Positions 7,562 to 47,086 of a stretch of DNA of 64,000 bases are shown one piece after another. The notes under the pieces were generated by a model. That model was not told the DNA's origin. It did no database searches and worked only from the letters and a program-made list of their open reading frames with translations. Within the stretch, counting starts at the first letter, position 1, and the number at the start of each line of letters is the position of its first letter. Source of the stretch: Escherichia coli (GTDB taxonomy: Bacteria > Pseudomonadota > Gammaproteobacteria > Enterobacterales > Enterobacteriaceae); NCBI RefSeq assembly GCF_003334315.1, contig NZ_QOWR01000006.1; one strand, given 5' to 3'. The position numbers and the translations under genes were made by a program.

Positions 7562-8782
7562 ATGAAACGTGCAGTGATTACTGGCCTGGGCATTGTTTCC
7601 AGCATCGGTAATAACCAGCAGGAAGTCCTGGCATCTCTGCGTGAAGGACGTTCAGGGATCACTTTCTCTCAGGAGCTGAAGGATTCCGGCATGCGTAGCC
7701 ACGTCTGGGGCAACGTAAAACTGGATACCACTGGCCTCATTGACCGCAAAGTTGTGCGCTTTATGAGCGACGCATCCATTTATGCATTCCTTTCTATGGA
7801 GCAGGCAATCGCTGATGCGGGCCTCTCTCCGGAAGCTTACCAGAATAACCCGCGCGTTGGCCTGATTGCAGGTTCCGGCGGCGGCTCCCCGCGTTTCCAG
7901 GTGTTCGGCGCTGACGCAATGCGCGGCCCGCGCGGCCTGAAAGCGGTTGGCCCGTATGTGGTCACCAAAGCGATGGCATCCGGCGTTTCTGCCTGCCTCG
8001 CCACCCCGTTTAAAATTCATGGCGTTAACTACTCCATCAGCTCCGCGTGTGCGACTTCCGCACACTGTATCGGTAACGCAGTAGAGCAGATCCAACTGGG
8101 CAAACAGGACATCGTGTTTGCTGGCGGCGGCGAAGAGCTGTGCTGGGAAATGGCTTGCGAATTCGACGCAATGGGTGCGCTGTCTACTAAATACAACGAC
8201 ACCCCGGAAAAAGCCTCCCGTACTTACGACGCTCACCGTGACGGTTTCGTTATCGCTGGCGGCGGCGGTATGGTAGTGGTTGAAGAGCTGGAACACGCGC
8301 TGGCGCGTGGTGCTCACATCTATGCTGAAATCGTTGGCTACGGCGCAACCTCTGATGGTGCAGACATGGTTGCTCCGTCTGGCGAAGGCGCAGTACGCTG
8401 CATGAAGATGGCGATGCATGGCGTTGATACCCCAATCGATTACCTGAACTCCCACGGTACTTCGACTCCGGTTGGCGACGTGAAAGAGCTGGCAGCTATC
8501 CGTGAAGTGTTCGGCGATAAGAGCCCGGCGATTTCTGCAACCAAAGCCATGACCGGTCACTCTCTGGGCGCTGCTGGCGTACAGGAAGCTATCTACTCTC
8601 TGCTGATGCTGGAACACGGCTTTATCGCCCCGAGCATCAACATTGAAGAGCTGGACGAGCAGGCTGCGGGTCTGAACATCGTGACCGAAACGACCGATCG
8701 CGAACTGACCACCGTTATGTCTAACAGCTTCGGCTTCGGCGGCACCAACGCCACGCTGGTAATGCGCAAGCTGAAAGATTAA
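7562..8782 (+). CDS. fabB: 3-oxoacyl-ACP synthase I (KAS I) FabB, 406 aa
   Basis: Recognised sequence; active-site Cys in [12 protein letters not shown] and His in [19 protein letters not shown] at 7551-7555. Confidence 0.97.
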
Positions 8783-16224: not shown

Positions 16225-17493
16225 ATGATTATCAAACGCACTCCTCAAGCCGCGTCGCCTCTGGCTTCGTGGCTTTCTTATCTGGAAAACCTGCACAGTA
16301 AAACTATCGATCTCGGCCTTGAGCGCGTGAGCCTGGTCGCGGCGCGTCTTGGCGTCCTGAAACCAGCGCCATTTGTGTTTACCGTTGCGGGTACGAATGG
16401 CAAAGGTACCACCTGCCGTACGCTGGAGTCGATTCTGATGGCGGCAGGGTACAAAGTGGGCGTCTACAGTTCGCCTCATCTGGTGCGTTATACCGAGCGC
16501 GTACGTGTGCAGGGCCAGGAATTGCCGGAATCGGCCCACACCGCCTCTTTTGCGGAGATTGAATCGGCACGCGGTGATATTTCCCTGACCTATTTCGAGT
16601 ACGGTACGCTGTCGGCGTTGTGGCTGTTCAAGCAGGCACAACTTGACGTGGTGATTCTGGAAGTAGGGCTGGGCGGTCGTCTGGACGCAACCAATATTGT
16701 CGACGCCGATGTCGCGGTAGTAACCAGTATTGCGCTGGATCATACCGACTGGCTGGGTCCAGATCGCGAAAGTATTGGTCGCGAGAAAGCAGGCATCTTC
16801 CGCAGCGAAAAACCGGCAATTGTCGGTGAGCCGGAAATGCCTTCTACCATTGCTGATGTGGCGCAGGAAAAAGGTGCACTGTTACAACGTCGGGGCGTTG
16901 AGTGGAACTATTCCGTCACCGATCATGACTGGGCGTTTAGCGATGCTCACGGCACGCTGGAAAATCTGCCGTTGCCGCTTGTCCCGCAACCGAATGCCGC
17001 AACAGCGCTGGCGGCACTGCGTGCCAGCGGGCTGGAAGTCAGTGAAAATGCCATTCGCGACGGGATTGCCAGCGCAATTTTGCCGGGACGTTTCCAGATT
17101 GTGAGCGAGTCGCCACGCGTTATTTTTGATGTCGCGCATAATCCACATGCGGCGGAATATCTCACCGGGCGTATGAAAGCGCTACCGAAAAACGGGCGCG
17201 TGCTGGCGGTTATCGGTATGCTACATGATAAAGATATTGCCGGAACTCTGGCCTGGTTGAAAAGCGTGGTTGATGACTGGTATTGTGCGCCACTGGAAGG
17301 GCCGCGCGGTGCCACGGCAGAACAACTGCTTGAGCATTTGGGTAACGGCAAATCATTTGATAGCGTTGCGCAGGCATGGGATGCCGCAATGGCGGACGCT
17401 AAAGCGGAAGACACCGTGCTGGTGTGTGGTTCTTTCCACACGGTCGCACATGTCATGGAAGTGATTGACGCGAGGAGAAGCGGTGGCAAGTAA
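16225..17493 (+). CDS. folC: Dihydrofolate synthase / folylpolyglutamate synthase FolC, 422 aa
   Basis: P-loop VAGTNGKGTT; recognised sequence. Confidence 0.95.
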   Translation: MIIKRTPQAASPLASWLSYLENLHSKTIDLGLERVSLVAARLGVLKPAPFVFTVAGTNGKGTTCRTLESILMAAGYKVGVYSSPHLVRYTERVRVQGQELPESAHTASFAEIESARGDISLTYFEYGTLSALWLFKQAQLDVVILEVGLGGRLDATNIVDADVAVVTSIALDHTDWLGPDRESIGREKAGIFRSEKPAIVGEPEMPSTIADVAQEKGALLQRRGVEWNYSVTDHDWAFSDAHGTLENLPLPLVPQPNAATALAALRASGLEVSENAIRDGIASAILPGRFQIVSESPRVIFDVAHNPHAAEYLTGRMKALPKNGRVLAVIGMLHDKDIAGTLAWLKSVVDDWYCAPLEGPRGATAEQLLEHLGNGKSFDSVAQAWDAAMADAKAEDTVLVCGSFHTVAHVMEVIDARRSGGK

Positions 17494-18145
17494 GTTTCAG
17501 AATCGGTTAGTGGGCACGATCGTGCTGGTGGCGCTGGGGGTGATTGTACTTCCAGGGCTGCTGGACGGGCAGAAAAAACATTATCAGGATGAGTTCGCGG
17601 CTATCCCGCTGGTGCCGAAAGCGGGCGATCGTGATGAGCCTGATATGATGCCAGCCGCCACCCAGGCGTTACCGACGCAGCCGCCGGAAGGCGCAGCGGA
17701 AGAGGTGCGGGCAGGTGATGCCGCAGCACCGTCGCTCGATCCGGCCACTATTGCAGCCAATAACACCGAGTTTGAACCGGAACCTGCACCGGTCGCCCCA
17801 CCGAAGCCGAAACCGGTGGAGCCGCCTAAACCAAAGGTTGAAGCACCACCTGCGCCGAAGCCAGAACCGAAGCCGGTCGTGGAAGAAAAAGCTGCACCGA
17901 CGGGTAAAGCCTATGTTGTGCAACTGGGTGCGCTGAAAAATGCCGATAAAGTGAATGAGATTGTCGGTAAGCTGCGCGGTGCCGGTTATCGGGTTTATAC
18001 GTCGCCATCCACGCCAGTGCAGGGTAAAATTACCCGTATTCTGGTTGGGCCGGATGCCTCGAAAGATAAGCTGAAAGGTTCGCTGGGTGAGTTGAAGCAA
18101 CTTTCTGGCTTAAGTGGCGTGGTAATGGGCTATACGCCGAATTAA
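17483..18145 (+). CDS. dedD: Cell division protein DedD (SPOR domain), 220 aa
   Basis: ORF 17465..18145 trimmed to GTG at 17483 after GAGGAG; Pro/Lys-rich linker and C-terminal SPOR-like domain; overlaps folC 3' end. Confidence 0.85.
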   Translation: MASKFQNRLVGTIVLVALGVIVLPGLLDGQKKHYQDEFAAIPLVPKAGDRDEPDMMPAATQALPTQPPEGAAEEVRAGDAAAPSLDPATIAANNTEFEPEPAPVAPPKPKPVEPPKPKVEAPPAPKPEPKPVVEEKAAPTGKAYVVQLGALKNADKVNEIVGKLRGAGYRVYTSPSTPVQGKITRILVGPDASKDKLKGSLGELKQLSGLSGVVMGYTPN

Positions 18146-18154
18146 TACGGTCTT

Positions 18155-18238
18155 GCCTGATGCGACGCTGGCGCGTCTTATCAGGCCTACGCAGGGGTAG
18201 AACCGTAGGTCGGATAAGGCGTTTACGCCGCATCCGAC
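18155..18238. repeat. BIME: two inverted REP elements
   Basis: gcctgatgcgacgctggcgcgtcttatcaggcctac and gtaggtcggataaggcgtttacgccgcatccgac. Confidence 0.85.
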
Positions 18239-18331
18239 ACGCATTGCCCGATGCCGCAAAGGCATAAAAAGTCGATGGCGTTGAATATTTTTTCAGCGCC
18301 ATTTTTATTGATGCGCGGGAAGGAAATCCCT

Positions 18332-18347
18332 ACGCAAACGTTTTCTT
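18332..18347 (+). promoter_or_regulatory. PurR operator (PUR box) of the cvpA-purF operon
   Basis: acgcaaacgttttctt matches the PUR box core ACGCAAACGTTTNCNT; a -10-like tagaat follows at 18355-18360. Confidence 0.75.
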
Positions 18348-18403
18348 TTTCTGTTAGAATGCGCCCCGAACAGGATGACAGGGCGTAAAATCGTGGGACA
18401 CAT

Positions 18404-18892
18404 ATGGTCTGGATTGATTACGCCATAATCGCGGTGATTGCTTTTTCCTCTCTGGTTAGCCTGATCCGCGGCTTTGTTCGTGAAGCGTTATCGCTGGTGA
18501 CATGGGGTTGTGCTTTCTTTGTTGCCAGTCATTACTACACTTACCTGTCAGTCTGGTTTACGGGCTTTGAAGACGAACTGGTTCGAAATGGGATTGCCAT
18601 CGCGGTACTGTTTATCGCTACCCTGATCGTTGGTGCTATCGTGAACTTCGTGATAGGCCAGTTGGTGGAGAAAACGGGGTTGTCAGGCACCGATCGGGTG
18701 CTGGGCGTCTGTTTCGGTGCGTTGCGCGGTGTGTTGATTGTTGCTGCCATTCTCTTCTTTCTCGACTCCTTTACCGGGGTGTCGAAAAGCGAAGACTGGA
18801 GCAAATCACAGCTGATCCCGCAATTCAGTTTTATCATCAGATGGTTTTTTGATTATCTGCAAAGCTCGTCAAGTTTCTTGCCCAGAGCGTAA
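18404..18892 (+). CDS. cvpA: Colicin V production membrane protein CvpA, 162 aa
   Basis: Recognised sequence; multi-TM; immediately upstream of purF. Confidence 0.92.
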   Translation: MVWIDYAIIAVIAFSSLVSLIRGFVREALSLVTWGCAFFVASHYYTYLSVWFTGFEDELVRNGIAIAVLFIATLIVGAIVNFVIGQLVEKTGLSGTDRVLGVCFGALRGVLIVAAILFFLDSFTGVSKSEDWSKSQLIPQFSFIIRWFFDYLQSSSSFLPRA

Positions 18893-18928
18893 GTGCTCTG
18901 AGATGTGGCTTAACGAGGAAAAAGACGT

Positions 18929-20446
18929 ATGTGCGGTATTGTCGGTATCGCCGGTGTTATGCCGGTTAACCAGTCGATTTATGATGCCTTAACGGTGCTT
19001 CAGCATCGCGGTCAGGATGCCGCCGGCATCATCACCATAGATGCCAATAACTGCTTCCGTTTGCGTAAAGCGAACGGGCTGGTGAGCGATGTATTTGAAG
19101 CTCGCCATATGCAGCGTTTGCAGGGCAATATGGGCATTGGTCATGTGCGTTACCCCACGGCTGGCAGCTCCAGCGCCTCTGAAGCGCAGCCGTTTTACGT
19201 TAACTCCCCGTATGGCATTACGCTTGCCCACAACGGCAATCTGACCAACGCTCACGAGTTGCGTAAAAAACTGTTTGAAGAAAAACGCCGCCACATCAAC
19301 ACCACTTCCGACTCGGAAATTCTGCTTAATATCTTCGCCAGCGAGCTGGACAATTTCCGCCACTACCCGCTGGAAGCCGACAATATTTTCGCTGCCATTG
19401 CTGCCACAAACCGCTTAATCCGCGGCGCGTATGCCTGTGTGGCGATGATTATCGGCCACGGTATGGTTGCTTTCCGCGATCCAAACGGGATTCGTCCGCT
19501 GGTACTGGGAAAACGTGATATTGACGAGAACCGTACAGAATATATGGTCGCTTCCGAAAGCGTAGCGCTCGATACGCTGGGCTTTGATTTCCTGCGTGAC
19601 GTCGCGCCGGGCGAAGCGATTTACATCACTGAAGAAGGGCAGTTGTTTACCCGTCAATGTGCTGACAATCCGGTCAGCAATCCGTGCCTGTTTGAGTATG
19701 TATACTTTGCTCGCCCGGACTCGTTCATCGACAAAATTTCCGTTTACAGCGCGCGTGTGAATATGGGCACGAAACTGGGCGAGAAAATTGCCCGCGAATG
19801 GGAAGATCTGGATATCGACGTGGTGATCCCGATCCCAGAAACCTCGTGTGATATCGCGCTGGAAATTGCTCGTATTCTGGGCAAACCGTACCGCCAGGGC
19901 TTCGTTAAAAACCGCTATGTTGGCCGCACCTTTATCATGCCGGGCCAGCAGCTGCGTCGTAAGTCCGTGCGCCGTAAACTGAATGCCAACCGCGCCGAGT
20001 TCCGCGATAAAAACGTCCTGCTGGTCGACGACTCCATCGTCCGTGGCACCACTTCTGAGCAGATTATCGAGATGGCACGCGAAGCCGGAGCGAAGAAAGT
20101 GTACCTCGCTTCTGCGGCACCGGAAATTCGCTTCCCGAACGTTTATGGTATTGATATGCCGAGCGCCACGGAGCTAATCGCTCACGGTCGTGAAGTGGAT
20201 GAAATTCGCCAGATCATCGGTGCTGACGGGTTGATTTTCCAGGATCTGAACGATCTGATCGAAGCCGTCCGCGCGGAAAACCCGGATATTCAGCAGTTTG
20301 AATGCTCGGTATTCAACGGCGTCTACGTCACCAAAGACGTTGATCAGGGCTACCTCGATTTCCTCGATACGTTACGTAATGATGACGCCAAAGCAGTGCA
20401 ACGTCAGAACGAAGTGGAAAATCTCGAAATGCATAACGAAGGATGA
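18929..20446 (+). CDS. purF: Amidophosphoribosyltransferase PurF, 505 aa
   Basis: N-terminal nucleophile Cys (MCGIVGI); PRPP-binding [13 protein letters not shown]. Confidence 0.97.
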
Positions 20447-20540: not shown

Positions 20541-21110
20541 ATGAAACGACTCATTGTAGGCATCAGCGGTGCCAGCGGCGCGATTTATGGCGTGCGCTTA
20601 TTACAGGTTCTGCGCGATGTCACAGATATCGAAACGCATCTGGTGATGAGCCAGGCAGCGCGCCAGACCTTATCCCTCGAAACGGATTTTTCTCTGCGCG
20701 AAGTGCAGGCATTAGCCGATGTCACGCACGATGCGCGCGATATTGCCGCCAGCATCTCTTCCGGTTCTTTCCAGACGCTGGGGATGGTGATTTTACCCTG
20801 TTCAATCAAAACCCTTTCCGGCATTGTCCATAGCTATACTGATGGCTTACTGACCCGTGCGGCAGATGTGGTGCTGAAAGAGCGTCGCCCGTTGGTGCTC
20901 TGCGTGCGTGAAACACCATTGCACTTAGGCCATCTGCGTTTAATGACTCAGGCGGCAGAAATCGGTGCGGTGATTATGCCTCCCGTTCCGGCGTTTTATC
21001 ATCGCCCGCAATCCCTTGATGATGTGATAAATCAGACGGTTAATCGTGTTCTTGACCAGTTTGCGATAACCCTTCCTGAAGATCTCTTTGCCCGCTGGCA
21101 GGGCGCATAA
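20541..21110 (+). CDS. ubiX: Flavin prenyltransferase UbiX, 189 aa
   Basis: GISGASGAIYG flavoprotein motif; recognised sequence. Confidence 0.95.
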   Translation: MKRLIVGISGASGAIYGVRLLQVLRDVTDIETHLVMSQAARQTLSLETDFSLREVQALADVTHDARDIAASISSGSFQTLGMVILPCSIKTLSGIVHSYTDGLLTRAADVVLKERRPLVLCVRETPLHLGHLRLMTQAAEIGAVIMPPVPAFYHRPQSLDDVINQTVNRVLDQFAITLPEDLFARWQGA

Positions 21111-32275: not shown

Positions 32276-34420
32276 TTACTGCTGCTGTGCAGACTGAATC
32301 GCAGTCAGCGCGATGGTGTAGACGATATCGTCAACCAGTGCGCCACGGGACAGGTCGTTAACCGGCTTGCGCATACCCTGCAGCATCGGCCCGATGGAGA
32401 TCAGGTCGGCAGAACGCTGTACCGCTTTGTAGGTGGTGTTACCGGTGTTCAGATCCGGGAAGATGAACACGGTAGCGCGACCTGCAACCGGAGAGTTCGG
32501 CGCTTTGGATTTCGCAACGTCAGCCATTACCGCAGCGTCGTACTGCAGCGGACCGTCGATCATCAGGTCAGGACGTTTTTCCTGCGCCAGACGAGTTGCT
32601 TCGCGAACTTTTTCTACGTCGCTACCTGCACCAGAAGTACCGGTGGAGTAGGAGAGCATAGCAACGCGCGGTTCGATACCGAAGGCCGCAGCGGAATCAG
32701 CGGACTGAATCGCGATTTCTGCCAGCTGTTCAGCGGTCGGATCCGGGTTGATCGCACAGTCACCGTAAACGTAAACCTGTTCCGGCAGCAGCATGAAGAA
32801 CACGGAAGATACCAGGGAGCTGCCCGGTGCAGTTTTGATCAGCTGCAGCGGCGGACGGATGGTGTTTGCGGTAGTGTGAACAGCACCGGAAACCAGACCA
32901 TCAACTTCATCCTGTTCCAGCATCAGCGTACCGAGCACCACGTTGTCTTCCAGCTGTTCGCGGGCAACGGTTTCGGTCATGCCTTTGTTCTTACGCAGTT
33001 CGACCAGACGACCAACATAGCTTTCGCGAACCACTTCTGGATCAACGATTTCAATCCCTGCACCCAGTTCTACACCCTGAGACGCTGCAACACGGTTGAT
33101 CTCTGCCGGATTACCCAGCAGTACGCAAGTTGCGATACCACGTTCAGCACAGATAGCGGCTGCTTTAACGGTACGCGGTTCGTCACCTTCCGGCAGTACG
33201 ATACGTTTGCCCGCTTTGCGCGCAAGTTCAGTCAGCTGATAACGGAACGCAGGCGGAGACAGACGACGGCTGCGCTCAGAAGTGGCAGTCAGAGATTCGA
33301 TCCAGTCAGCGTTGATGTAGTTAGCAACGTATTCCTGAACTTTCTCGATACGTTCGTGATCGTCAACCGGAACTTCCAGGTTGAAGCTCTGCAGGCTCAG
33401 AGAGGTCTGCCAGGTGTTGGTGTTCACCATAAATACCGGCAGGCCGGTAGCGAAAGCACGTTCGCACAGTTTAGAAATGCGCGCGTCCATTTCGTAACCG
33501 CCAGTCAGCAGCAGGGCACCGATTTCTACGCCGTTCATGGCTGCCAGGCAAGCGGCCACCAGCACGTCAGGACGGTCTGCGGAAGTCACCAGCAGAGAAC
33601 CGGCACGGAAGTGCTCCAGCATGTGCGGAATGCTGCGTGCGCAGAAAGTGACGGATTTAACGCGGCGAGTATTGATGTCGCCTTCGTTGATGATGGTCGC
33701 ATTCAGGTGGCGAGCCATATCGATCGCACGAGTCGCGATCAGGTCAAAGCTCCACGGCACAGCGCCGAGAACCGGCAGCGGGCTGGATTCTTGCAGCTTC
33801 GCCGGATCAACATTGTTTACTTTAGCTTTGGAAGAGTCGTCGAAAATCTCGGACAGATCCGGGCGAGTACGACCCTGTTCATCAACCGGTGCGTTCAGTT
33901 TGTTAACGATAACGCCGGTGATGTTGGTGTTTTTGGCACCGCCGAAGCTGTTGCGGGTCAGTTCGATACGCTCTTTCAGCTGTTCCGGGGTGTCAGTGCC
34001 CTGAGACATAACGAAGACGATTTCCGCATTCAGCGTTTTAGCGATTTCGTAGTTCAGAGACTGGGCAAACTGGTGCTTACGTGTCGGGACCAGACCTTCA
34101 ACCAGAACGACTTCAGCGTCTTTGGTGTTAGCGTGGTAGTTTGCGACGATCTCTTCCATCAGCACATCTTTCTGATTGCTGGAAAGCAGACCTTCAACGT
34201 AGCTCATTTTCAGCGGTTCAGCGGCCGTCGTGGTGGAAGAGTTCGCACGCACGATAGTCGTAGTCTGATCGGGCGCATCGCCACCGGTACGCGGCTGAGC
34301 GATAGGTTTGAAAACGCTCAGACGAACGCCTTTGCGTTCCATTGCACGGATCACGCCAAGGCTGACGCTGGTCAGACCGACGCTGGTTCCGGTAGGGATC
34401 AGCATAATAATACGGGACAC
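32276..34420 (-). CDS. pta: Phosphate acetyltransferase Pta, 714 aa
   Basis: Recognised sequence; three-domain Pta architecture; downstream of ackA on the same strand. Confidence 0.97.
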
Positions 34421-37814: not shown

Positions 37815-39647
37815 GTGAACGGTGAATTGATTTGGGTTCTTTCATTACTGGCCGTTGCCATCGTCTTGTTTGCGACGGGCAGAGTGCGTATGGATGCGGT
37901 CGCTTTGTTTGTTATTGTCGCGTTTGCATTAAGCGGAACGCTGACAGTCCCAGAAGTATTTTCCGGCTTTTCTGATCCTAACGTTGTCCTGATTGCCGCC
38001 TTGTTTATTATTGGCGATGGTTTGGTCCGTACCGGTGTTGCCACCGTAATGGGAACATGGCTGGTCAAAGTTGCGGGCAATAGTGAAATCAAAATGTTGG
38101 TTTTGTTGATGCTGACCGTCGCGGGGCTTGGCGCGTTTATGAGTTCAACCGGCGTTGTCGCTATCTTTATTCCCGTGGTGTTAAGCGTTGCCATGCGTAT
38201 GCAAACGTCGCCGTCACGTCTGATGATGCCGTTAAGTTTTGCCGGGCTGATTAGCGGCATGATGACGCTGGTGGCGACGCCGCCGAACCTGGTAGTCAAC
38301 AGTGAATTGCTGCGTGAAGGCTATCACGGCTTCAGTTTCTTTAGCGTAACACCTATTGGCCTGGTCGTGCTGGTGCTGGGTATTTTGTATATGTTAGTGA
38401 TGCGTTTCATGCTGAAAGGGGATACCCAGACCCCGCAGCGCGAAGGCTGGACGCGTCGAACCTTTCGCGATCTTATCCGTGAATATCGACTGACCGGGCG
38501 TGCGCGACGTCTGGCTATTCGCCCCGGATCGCCAATGATTGGTCAACGGCTGGATGATCTCAAATTACGTGAGCGTTATGGCGCTAACGTCATCGGTGTT
38601 GAACGCTGGCGGCGTTTTCGTCGCGTTATCGTGAACGTTAATGGGGTTTCTGAATTTCGCGCGCGTGACGTTTTGCTTATTGATATGTCTGCGGCTGATG
38701 TCGATCTCCGGCAATTTTGTAGTGAGCAATTGCTGGAGCCGATGGTACTGCGCGGCGAGTATTTTTCTGACCAGGCCCTTGATGTGGGCATGGCAGAGAT
38801 TTCATTAATTCCTGAGTCAGAACTGATTGGTAAATCGGTGCGCGAAATTGGTTTTCGTACCCGCTACGGACTGAATGTGGTGGGGCTAAAGCGCAATGGC
38901 GTGGCGCTGGAAGGTTCGCTGGCGGATGAGCCTCTGCTGCTGGGCGATATCATCCTGGTTGTGGGTAACTGGAAACTGATCGGTATGCTGGCCAAACAGG
39001 GCCGCGACTTCGTAGCGCTGAACTTACCGGAAGAGGTGAGTGAAGCATCACCCGCGCACAGCCAGGCACCCCATGCCATTTTCTGTCTGGTGCTAATGGT
39101 GGCGTTAATGCTGACAGATGAAATTCCTAATCCTGTTGCCGCTATCATCGCCTGCCTGCTGATGGGGAAATTCCGCTGTATAGATGCTGAAAGCGCCTAT
39201 AAATCCATTCACTGGCCGAGCATTATTTTGATCGTTGGGATGATGCCGTTTGCTGTGGCATTACAGAAAACGGGAGGTGTCGCGCTGGCGGTGAAAGGGC
39301 TGATGGACATTGGCGGTGGTTACGGGCCACATATGATGCTGGGGTGTTTGTTTGTCTTGTCGGCGGTTATTGGGCTATTTATCTCTAATACCGCGACGGC
39401 GGTGTTGATGGCTCCGATTGCGCTGGCTGCTGCCAAAACGATGGGGGTGTCGCCTTATCCATTCGCGATGGTCGTGGCGATGGCAGCATCCGCCGCCTTT
39501 ATGACACCGGTTTCTTCACCTGTTAACACACTGGTTTTAGGTCCGGGAAATTACAGCTTCAGTGACTTTGTGAAGTTGGGGGTACCGTTCACCATTATCG
39601 TGATGGCGGTTTGTGTGGTGATGATCCCGATGCTGTTTCCGTTTTGA
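37815..39647 (+). CDS. yfbS: Putative DASS/SLC13-type transporter with central TrkA-C domains, YfbS, 610 aa
   Basis: GTG start; two hydrophobic halves separated by a soluble region; recognised sequence. Confidence 0.88.
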
Positions 39648-45283: not shown

Positions 45284-47086
45284 ATGGTGAACAATATGAC
45301 CGACTTAACCGCGCAAGAACCCGCCTGGCAGACCCGCGATCATCTTGATGATCCGGTGATTGGCGAACTGCGCAACCGTTTTGGGCCGGATGCCTTTACT
45401 GTTCAGGCGACTCGCACCGGGGTTCCCGTTGTGTGGATCAAGCGTGAACAATTACTGGAAGTTGGCGATTTCTTAAAGAAACTGCCGAAACCTTACGTCA
45501 TGCTGTTTGACTTACACGGCATGGACGAACGTCTGCGCACACACCGCGAAGGGTTACCTGCCGCGGATTTTTCCGTTTTCTACCATCTGATTTCTATCGA
45601 TCGTAACCGCGACATCATGCTGAAGGTGGCGCTGGCAGAAAACGACCTGCACGTACCGACCTTCACCAAACTGTTCCCGAACGCTAACTGGTATGAGCGT
45701 GAAACCTGGGATCTGTTTGGCATTACTTTCGACGGTCACCCGAACCTGCGCCGCATCATGATGCCGCAAACCTGGAAAGGTCACCCGCTGCGTAAAGATT
45801 ACCCGGCGCGCGCTACCGAATTCTCGCCGTTTGAGCTGACCAAAGCCAAACAGGATCTGGAGATGGAAGCCCTGACCTTCAAACCGGAAGAGTGGGGGAT
45901 GAAGCGCGGCACCGAAAACGAGGACTTCATGTTCCTCAACCTCGGTCCGAACCACCCGTCGGCGCACGGGGCTTTCCGTATCGTTTTACAACTCGACGGC
46001 GAAGAGATTGTCGACTGCGTACCAGACATCGGCTACCACCACCGTGGTGCGGAGAAAATGGGCGAGCGCCAGTCCTGGCACAGCTACATTCCGTATACCG
46101 ACCGTATTGAATACCTCGGCGGCTGCGTTAACGAAATGCCTTACGTGCTGGCGGTAGAGAAACTGGCCGGGATCACCGTGCCGGATCGCGTTAACGTCAT
46201 TCGCGTTATGCTCTCCGAACTGTTCCGCATCAACAGTCACCTGCTGTATATCTCGACCTTTATTCAGGACGTCGGCGCAATGACGCCAGTGTTCTTCGCC
46301 TTTACCGATCGTCAGAAAATTTACGATCTGGTGGAAGCAATCACTGGTTTCCGTATGCACCCGGCGTGGTTCCGTATTGGCGGCGTAGCGCACGACCTGC
46401 CGCGCGGCTGGGATCGCCTGCTGCGTGAGTTCCTCGACTGGATGCCGAAACGTCTGGCGTCTTACGAGAAAGCGGCGCTGCAAAACACCATTCTGAAAGG
46501 TCGTTCCCAGGGCGTTGCCGCCTATGGCGCGAAAGAGGCGCTGGAGTGGGGCACCACTGGCGCGGGCCTGCGTGCTACCGGGATCGACTTCGACGTGCGT
46601 AAGGCGCGTCCTTATTCTGGCTATGAAAACTTCGACTTTGAAATCCCGGTGGGTGGTGGCGTTTCTGACTGCTACACCCGCGTAATGCTTAAAGTGGAAG
46701 AGCTGCGCCAGAGTCTGCGCATTCTTGAGCAGTGCCTCAACAACATGCCGGAAGGCCCGTTCAAAGCGGATCACCCGCTGACCACGCCGCCGCCGAAAGA
46801 GCGCACGCTGCAACATATCGAAACCCTGATCACCCACTTCCTGCAAGTGTCGTGGGGTCCGGTGATGCCTGCCAATGAATCTTTCCAGATGATTGAGGCG
46901 ACCAAAGGGATCAACAGTTACTACCTGACCAGCGACGGCAGCACCATGAGTTACCGCACCCGTGTTCGTACCCCGAGCTTTGCGCATTTGCAGCAAATTC
47001 CGGCGGCGATCCGCGGCAGCCTGGTGTCTGACCTGATTGTTTATCTGGGCAGTATCGATTTTGTTATGTCAGATGTGGACCGCTAA
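45284..47086 (+). CDS. nuoC: NADH:quinone oxidoreductase fused subunit C/D, 600 aa as drawn
   Basis: Recognised fused NuoCD; start could instead be the in-frame ATG at 45296 (MTDLT...), since no clear SD marks either. Confidence 0.93.

Follow-up and report, generated by a model that had tools for sequence, protein, structure and literature searches.

The 16-bp sequence ACGCAAACGTTTTCTT, at positions 18332-18347 of the window (the whole stretch of Escherichia coli DNA analysed, 64,000 nucleotides), is almost certainly the PurR operator of the cvpA-purF-ubiX transcription unit, known as the purF operator, and corepressor-loaded PurR bound there very probably blocks initiation at the promoter cvpAp1. 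The site, the promoter and the transcription start are already known. The enzyme encoded by purF catalyses the committed step of the de novo purine pathway, and its operator has been a model site for PurR genetics, biochemistry and crystallography. The present analysis adds no new biology except a clear view of how strictly Enterobacterales keep the operator-promoter unit. It also serves as a positive control: a functional regulatory site was found and read correctly from raw sequence.

The PUR box and its locus

The window carries the gene order accD-folC-dedD-cvpA-purF-ubiX, as read from open reading frame (ORF) translations, and is part of the E. coli chromosome. The elements that frame the box are the following.

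18274-18303, plus strand: terminator-like hairpin and T-run, end of the folC-dedD transcript (scan; T-runs conserved in the anchored alignment)
18332-18347, no strand assigned: PUR box, PurR operator of cvpA-purF (PurR matrix, published ChIP motif, 91/91 Enterobacterales loci)
18404-18892, plus strand: cvpA, first gene of the repressed operon (ORF; E. coli RefSeq annotation)
18929-20446, plus strand: purF (amidophosphoribosyltransferase), beginning 36 bp after cvpA (ORF; NC_000913.3 annotation)
20541-21110, plus strand: ubiX, third gene of the transcription unit (ORF; annotation; unit name cvpA-purF-ubiX in PMC3159470)

The hairpin at 18274-18303 bounds the cvpA promoter region on its upstream side. 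A 301-bp query across the site finds a match in every one of 5,426 complete E. coli genomes, many of them with 100% identity, and the annotated feature is cvpA. In K-12 MG1655 the box is on the other strand, at NC_000913.3 2,430,820-2,430,835. Across the dedD-cvpA intergenic region (18146-18403) the window and MG1655 show zero base differences, so that published experiments with that strain apply directly to the window. Between 17500 and 20400 there are 15 substitutions relative to MG1655, all in cvpA or purF coding sequence (18844-20338) and many of them spaced at multiples of three. The window strain is therefore a non-K-12 E. coli with an identical regulatory region.

Other elements of the intergenic region lie outside the box. 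REP/BIME repeats occupy 18119-18264, between dedD and the cvpA promoter, and give three overlapping sub-threshold Rfam matches to naRNA4 (35-38 bits, where the gathering score is 59.5). According to a published survey, the BIMEs preceding cvpA, gatY and rbfA may act as attenuators (PMC2965389). In vitro run-off microarray data record transcription in the opposite direction upstream of cvpA, preferred by the sigma-S holoenzyme (probe IG2428784_2429041-f, 1.71; PMC3141248); this probe corresponds to window 18148-18405, minus strand, and its entry is ambiguous because the same identifier recurs as lying between yobD and yebN (3.10). An Rfam scan of 17400-19000 found no family at or downstream of the box, and explanations by a leader RNA or riboswitch were dropped on that account. 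No terminator-like site was found by scan between cvpA and purF. Together these two results fit a single transcript from cvpAp1.

The box was located by string search on the plus strand, and AAGAAAACGTTTGCGT is its reverse complement. It is a 16-bp imperfect palindrome matching ACGNAAACGTTTGCNT, self-complementary at 12 of 16 positions, with a CpG at 18339-18340 as its centre. A string search allowing up to three mismatches gave one match against 0.67 expected, which says little alone. The PurR matrix (PWM) was built from 27 of the 28 ChIP-defined motifs of Cho 2011 (PMC3159470, Table 1), the cvpA entry being omitted to give a leave-one-out score. By this matrix the box reaches 21.49 bits, the top score of the 64 kb on both strands; the runner-up among distinct sites has 13.6 bits, about 8 bits less. 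From the exact score distribution, p is 2.0e-8 per position, and the expected count at this score is 0.0026 per window (both strands) and about 0.19 per whole E. coli genome. Among the 28 published sites scored by leave-one-out, the box ranks fifth, tied with codBA.

Weaker matches occur elsewhere in the window. Three sub-threshold sites, at 34322-34337 (13.6 bits), 45370-45385 (13.2 bits) and 38199-38214 (12.5 bits), were set aside as PurR sites; they are probably chance matches, since their scores fall within the range of the control windows described below (99.9th percentile 14.6 bits). Of these, the 34322 site falls within a long ORF, and the 45370 site where another one begins. The sequence ACCAAAGCGATGGCAT at 7964-7979 equals the motif given by Cho 2011 for a weak PurR ChIP peak at fabB-mnmC (log2 0.97). 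It scores 9.9 bits by leave-one-out and is not intergenic, lying within a 406-aa ORF (7562-8782) that fits fabB in size and position. This may be a weak peak that covers a chance motif.

PurR binding and the cvpAp1 promoter

Binding of PurR to this region in vivo has been reported by ChIP-chip. The peak for cvpA-purF-ubiX spans 2,428,603-2,428,965 in older coordinates (log2 1.77) and was detected solely with exogenous adenine; the motif assigned to it, AAGAAAACGTTTGCGT at 2,428,842-2,428,857, lies within the peak, and the unit is counted among previously characterised PurR sites (PMC3159470, Table 1). Coordinate arithmetic converts the peak to window 18224-18586. ChIP-chip resolves a few hundred base pairs, and the peak therefore places PurR in the region, not on the 16 bp; within it the PurR matrix picks out nothing else of 12 bits or more. 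Purified PurR shifts a cvpA-purF fragment extending from -171 to +56 (EMSA, PMC5829826), and co-crystal structures of PurR with the purF operator have reportedly been solved (Schumacher 1994, 1997). Repression has likewise been documented: Cho 2011 names purF as one of the IMP-pathway genes that PurR-hypoxanthine represses (PMC3159470), and deletion of purR in Yersinia pestis raises purF about 4-fold (log2 1.98 and 2.24; PMC10673613). Relatives of Y. pestis in the locus set described below carry a box identical to that of E. coli.

Corepressor-dependent occupancy in vivo and binding in vitro are on record for the region that holds this PUR box, and derepression of purF on loss of purR for Y. 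pestis; nothing was found arguing against PurR binding at 18332-18347. The purF promoter and operator were reportedly first defined in the work of Makaroff & Zalkin in 1985 and of Rolfes & Zalkin in 1988, and operator-constitutive point mutations in the box are said to have abolished repression in the 1988 study. The original prediction had claimed a PUR box matching the PurR operator core at these positions, and the sequence is indeed in place and equals the reverse complement of the published motif. A scan with the PurR matrix, which it had set as a test, puts the box at the top of the window (21.5 bits, p 2e-8). The purine repression of cvpA-purF that it ascribed to the box is borne out by the adenine-dependent peak and by the PurR-hypoxanthine repression of purF (PMC3159470).

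A different repressor might use the same DNA. Operators of the LacI family have a central CG and related half-sites in common, and RbsR reportedly affects purine genes, so the site could be shared with, or mainly used by, a LacI/GalR paralogue such as RbsR or CytR, with control that is not purely purine-responsive. We regard this as very unlikely, given that the ChIP experiment used tagged PurR and its peak here required adenine, that the site stands near the top of a PurR-specific matrix, and that the literature consulted revealed no other regulator at the cvpA-purF promoter.

The start of transcription has been mapped by two methods. Nuclease mapping with S1 nuclease placed the known start of cvpA promoter p1 at -37 from the ATG (Makaroff 1985, Nonet 1987; PMC2760140, Table 1), and 5' RACE placed it at -36 (Mendoza-Vargas 2009, PMC2760140). 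With the ATG at 18404, +1 is therefore 18367 or 18368, 20-21 bp downstream of the box. The promoter elements are as follows.

18331-18337, plus strand: nominal -35 of cvpAp1, no good hexamer (computed geometry; within the box or at its edge)
18352-18360, plus strand: extended -10 TGtTAGAAT of cvpAp1, sigma-70 (PMC2760140 Table S1; near-invariant across Enterobacterales)
18361-18366, plus strand: G+C-rich discriminator GCGCCC, between -10 and start (sequence read; partly conserved)
18367-18368, plus strand: transcription start of cvpA-purF-ubiX (start from PMC2760140 converted to window coordinates)

Counted from these starts, the box covers -36 to -21 (or -35 to -20) with its centre at -28.5 or -27.5, so that it takes in the -35 position and the greater part of the spacer. 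The hexamer TAGAAT (18355-18360) occupies -13 to -8 (or -12 to -7), the TG -16/-15 (or -15/-14), and 7 bp, TTTCTGT at 18348-18354, lie between box and hexamer. Table S1 of PMC2760140 lists the -10 as ttctGTTAGAATgcgc (PATSER 4.77) with an extended -10 TG, names the promoter 'Known cvpAp1' and reports no -35. These are the features of an extended -10 sigma-70 promoter: TGt is joined to TAGAAT, which agrees with TATAAT at five of six positions, and the start follows 6-7 nt past the hexamer. The best -35 candidates agree poorly with TTGACA, TACGCA matching at 3/6 with an 18-bp spacer and ACGCAA at 2/6 with 17 bp. A generic -35/-10 consensus scan of 18100-18950 found no promoter pair, because cvpAp1 has no recognisable -35. 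The box occupies the place of a -35 without overlapping a good one, and cvpAp1 is of the extended -10 type.

Two details of the original prediction need adjustment in this light. It had the box about 8 bp upstream of a tagaat hexamer: the hexamer is at 18355-18360 and coincides with the published -10, but the gap is 7 bp. It also had the box over the -35 region, and the -35 position is indeed covered, but there is no good -35 hexamer to overlap. Start-site mapping, its second test, does not refute it, since +1 is near the box and not far from it.

The discriminator is a further feature of this promoter. Positions 18361-18367 read GCGCCCC, and the Enterobacterales pattern is TAGAAT followed by G/T-CGCC; conservation of the discriminator averages 1.39 bits/column in the anchored Enterobacterales alignment. 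G+C-rich discriminators are typical of promoters inhibited by ppGpp/DksA.

The proposed mechanism of repression has four steps. (i) When hypoxanthine or guanine is abundant, a corepressor-loaded dimer of PurR, a member of the LacI/GalR family, binds the imperfect palindrome. (ii) On -36 to -21 of cvpAp1, bound PurR would take the place of sigma region 4 and of the upstream spacer contacts. This displacement is proposed because the box covers those positions and the only strong promoter elements are TGn and TAGAAT. (iii) RNA polymerase would be denied DNA that it needs, and initiation would be blocked. (iv) Synthesis of glutamine-PRPP amidotransferase, which opens the de novo purine pathway, is in this way repressed. 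Binding, its dependence on corepressor, the place of the box relative to +1 and the repression of purF are shown by the evidence above. From the position of the box and the general description of promoter-overlapping PurR sites, we infer that the step blocked is probably RNA polymerase binding, by steric occlusion.

The block might instead fall later, at open-complex isomerisation or promoter escape, with polymerase still docking on the -10 while PurR is bound. The promoter has TGn and TAGAAT and lacks a usable -35, extended -10 promoters are generally known to tolerate lost -35 contacts, and the box stops at -21, with 4-5 bp between it and the TG, leaving the -10 region uncovered. A PurR dimer on -36 to -21 would nonetheless overlap sigma region 4 and the spacer-proximal surface of polymerase. 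Reviews describe promoter-overlapping PurR sites as the usual arrangement for blocking initiation, and no data for a post-binding mechanism were found. A later block is accordingly judged quite unlikely, and occlusion of polymerase binding is the preferred reading.

Conservation across Enterobacterales

Loci for comparison were fetched by a degenerate coding pattern for the CvpA peptide LIRGFVREA, a procedure that avoids selection on the box. It yielded 120 loci, one genome per species. The CvpA start was located by tblastn and the 200 nt upstream were scanned with the PurR matrix. The usable Enterobacterales set comprises 91 loci whose CvpA is at least 76% identical, and the box is present in all 91. 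At least seven families are represented: Enterobacteriaceae, Erwiniaceae, Yersiniaceae, Pectobacteriaceae, Hafniaceae, Budviciaceae and Morganellaceae. The genera include Escherichia, Citrobacter, Enterobacter, Raoultella, Erwinia, Pantoea, Tatumella, Yersinia, Serratia and Rahnella, and also Dickeya, Pectobacterium, Hafnia, Edwardsiella, Budvicia, Proteus, Providencia, Xenorhabdus and Arsenophonus. The score is at least 21.4 bits in 89 of the 91, the lowest being those of Edwardsiella ictaluri (16.4) and Arsenophonus nasoniae (19.0). The Morganellaceae variant ACGCAAACGTTTTCGT, with T15 changed to G, is nearer the consensus and reaches 24.7 bits. For comparison, the best scores in 4117 control 200-bp windows from the same loci have a 99.9th percentile of 14.6 bits and a maximum of 16.7. 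Eleven distant gammaproteobacterial loci (CvpA at most 61% identical), among them Gilliamella, Thorsellia, Aliidiomarina and Cellvibrio, carry no site, their best score being 4.9 bits.

The arrangement of box and promoter is as constant as the box itself. In 91/91 loci the register is fixed, the box being followed by exactly 7 nt and then TA(G/A)AAT, that is TGnTA(G/A)AAT. Across the same loci the ATG follows the box at anything between 41 and 179 nt. The near-invariant block of 30 bp reads T-ACGCAAACGTTTTC(T/G)T-TTTCTGT-TAGAAT and extends through at least seven Enterobacterales families. When the 82 distinct sequences are anchored on the box, conservation is 1.93 bits/column in the box and 1.95 in the spacer and extended -10, against 0.65 for the upstream 50 nt and 0.57 for the leader.

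Leader length is variable in its own right. Six loci of Erwinia, Serratia and Rouxiella (L041, L050, L032, L073, L113 and L055) have 99-179 nt between the promoter block and the ATG, and most other loci have 53-74 nt; the long leaders imply insertion in the 5' UTR.

A regulatory role for the box could be denied in two ways. On the first, the string is PUR-box-like by chance, as the uninformative three-mismatch search (1 against 0.67 expected) would allow when taken alone. The matrix p of 2e-8, the ChIP peak in vivo, the EMSA and the register with the -10, fixed in 91/91 species of at least seven families, refute this reading, whose probability we regard as negligible. On the second, the block is kept solely as a core promoter, PurR acts from another site or indirectly, and the match to a PUR box is incidental. 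The block does correspond exactly to -37 to -8 of the promoter, positions at which PurR tolerates variation are also invariant, and 16 bp is below the resolution of ChIP-chip. Against this, a match of 21.5 bits is expected only about 0.003 times per window and 0.2 times per genome, and in 89/91 species the 260 nt preceding cvpA contain nothing else that reaches 12 bits, and neither does the ChIP peak. Where other families have substitutions in the box, the PurR score is mostly maintained or higher, and it falls below 21 bits solely in E. ictaluri and A. nasoniae. Binding and crystal studies have, moreover, used this very site as the purF operator. Conservation as a core promoter alone is therefore extremely improbable, and the box is best regarded as an operator within a promoter.

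The pattern of invariance bears on how the two functions share the block. Invariant positions include the N positions of the PurR consensus and the T at box position 13, which is sub-optimal for PurR. Because this invariance goes beyond the degenerate specificity of PurR, the overlapping promoter must account for some of the conservation. It is most simply explained by double duty of the same bases as operator and core promoter. The constraint on the 30 bp may alternatively record a tuned, weaker operator, suggested by the occupancy seen solely with added adenine, or a further, undescribed contact of polymerase or a second factor with the spacer; either is unlikely.

The 260 nt upstream of cvpA were also scanned for a second site of at least 12 bits, which is absent in 89 of the 91 species, E. 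coli included. With no second operator of that score in this interval, a looping model for E. coli was dropped. In Budvicia diplopodorum (L014) and B. aquatica (L040) there is a second strong PUR box, exactly 32 bp upstream of the conserved one. These second boxes, ACGATAACGTTTGCTT (19.2 bits) and ACGGTAACGTTTGCTT (17.8 bits), lie at about -140 from the cvpA start, some three helical turns away from the conserved box. The double box of Budviciaceae may be a cooperative or tandem operator.

Comparison with known operators

Operators of the lac O1/LacI type resemble the PUR box in being palindromes with a central CG, recognized by a dimeric LacI/GalR-family repressor whose affinity is controlled by a small ligand. 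The ligand acts in the opposite sense: hypoxanthine or guanine is a corepressor that promotes binding of PurR, whereas the ligand of LacI is an inducer that releases the repressor from lac O1. A single operator is seen at E. coli cvpA-purF, with no auxiliary operator of at least 12 bits in the 260 nt scanned ahead of cvpA.

Within the PurR regulon, the purB and purR boxes have the same repressor and motif as cvpA-purF. They differ in position, lying downstream of the start in transcribed or coding DNA, where they block elongation, whereas the cvpA-purF box is upstream of +1. Closer counterparts are the boxes of purHD, purL, purMN, purEK, purC and purT. These share the 16-bp imperfect palindrome with consensus ACGNAAACGTTTGCNT, and are placed between or over the -35 and -10, where PurR blocks initiation. 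The right half-site of the cvpA-purF box, GTTTTCTT, differs from the consensus GTTTGCGT at two positions. In ChIP experiments purC, purMN, purEK and purT were occupied also without adenine, whereas cvpA-purF was occupied solely when adenine was added (PMC3159470).

The closest match is the purF operator of the E. coli PurR regulon itself (Makaroff & Zalkin 1985; Rolfes & Zalkin 1988; Cho 2011), to which the site in the window is identical. MG1655 and the window share the same intergenic region, the same cvpAp1 and the same start, with no difference at the site.
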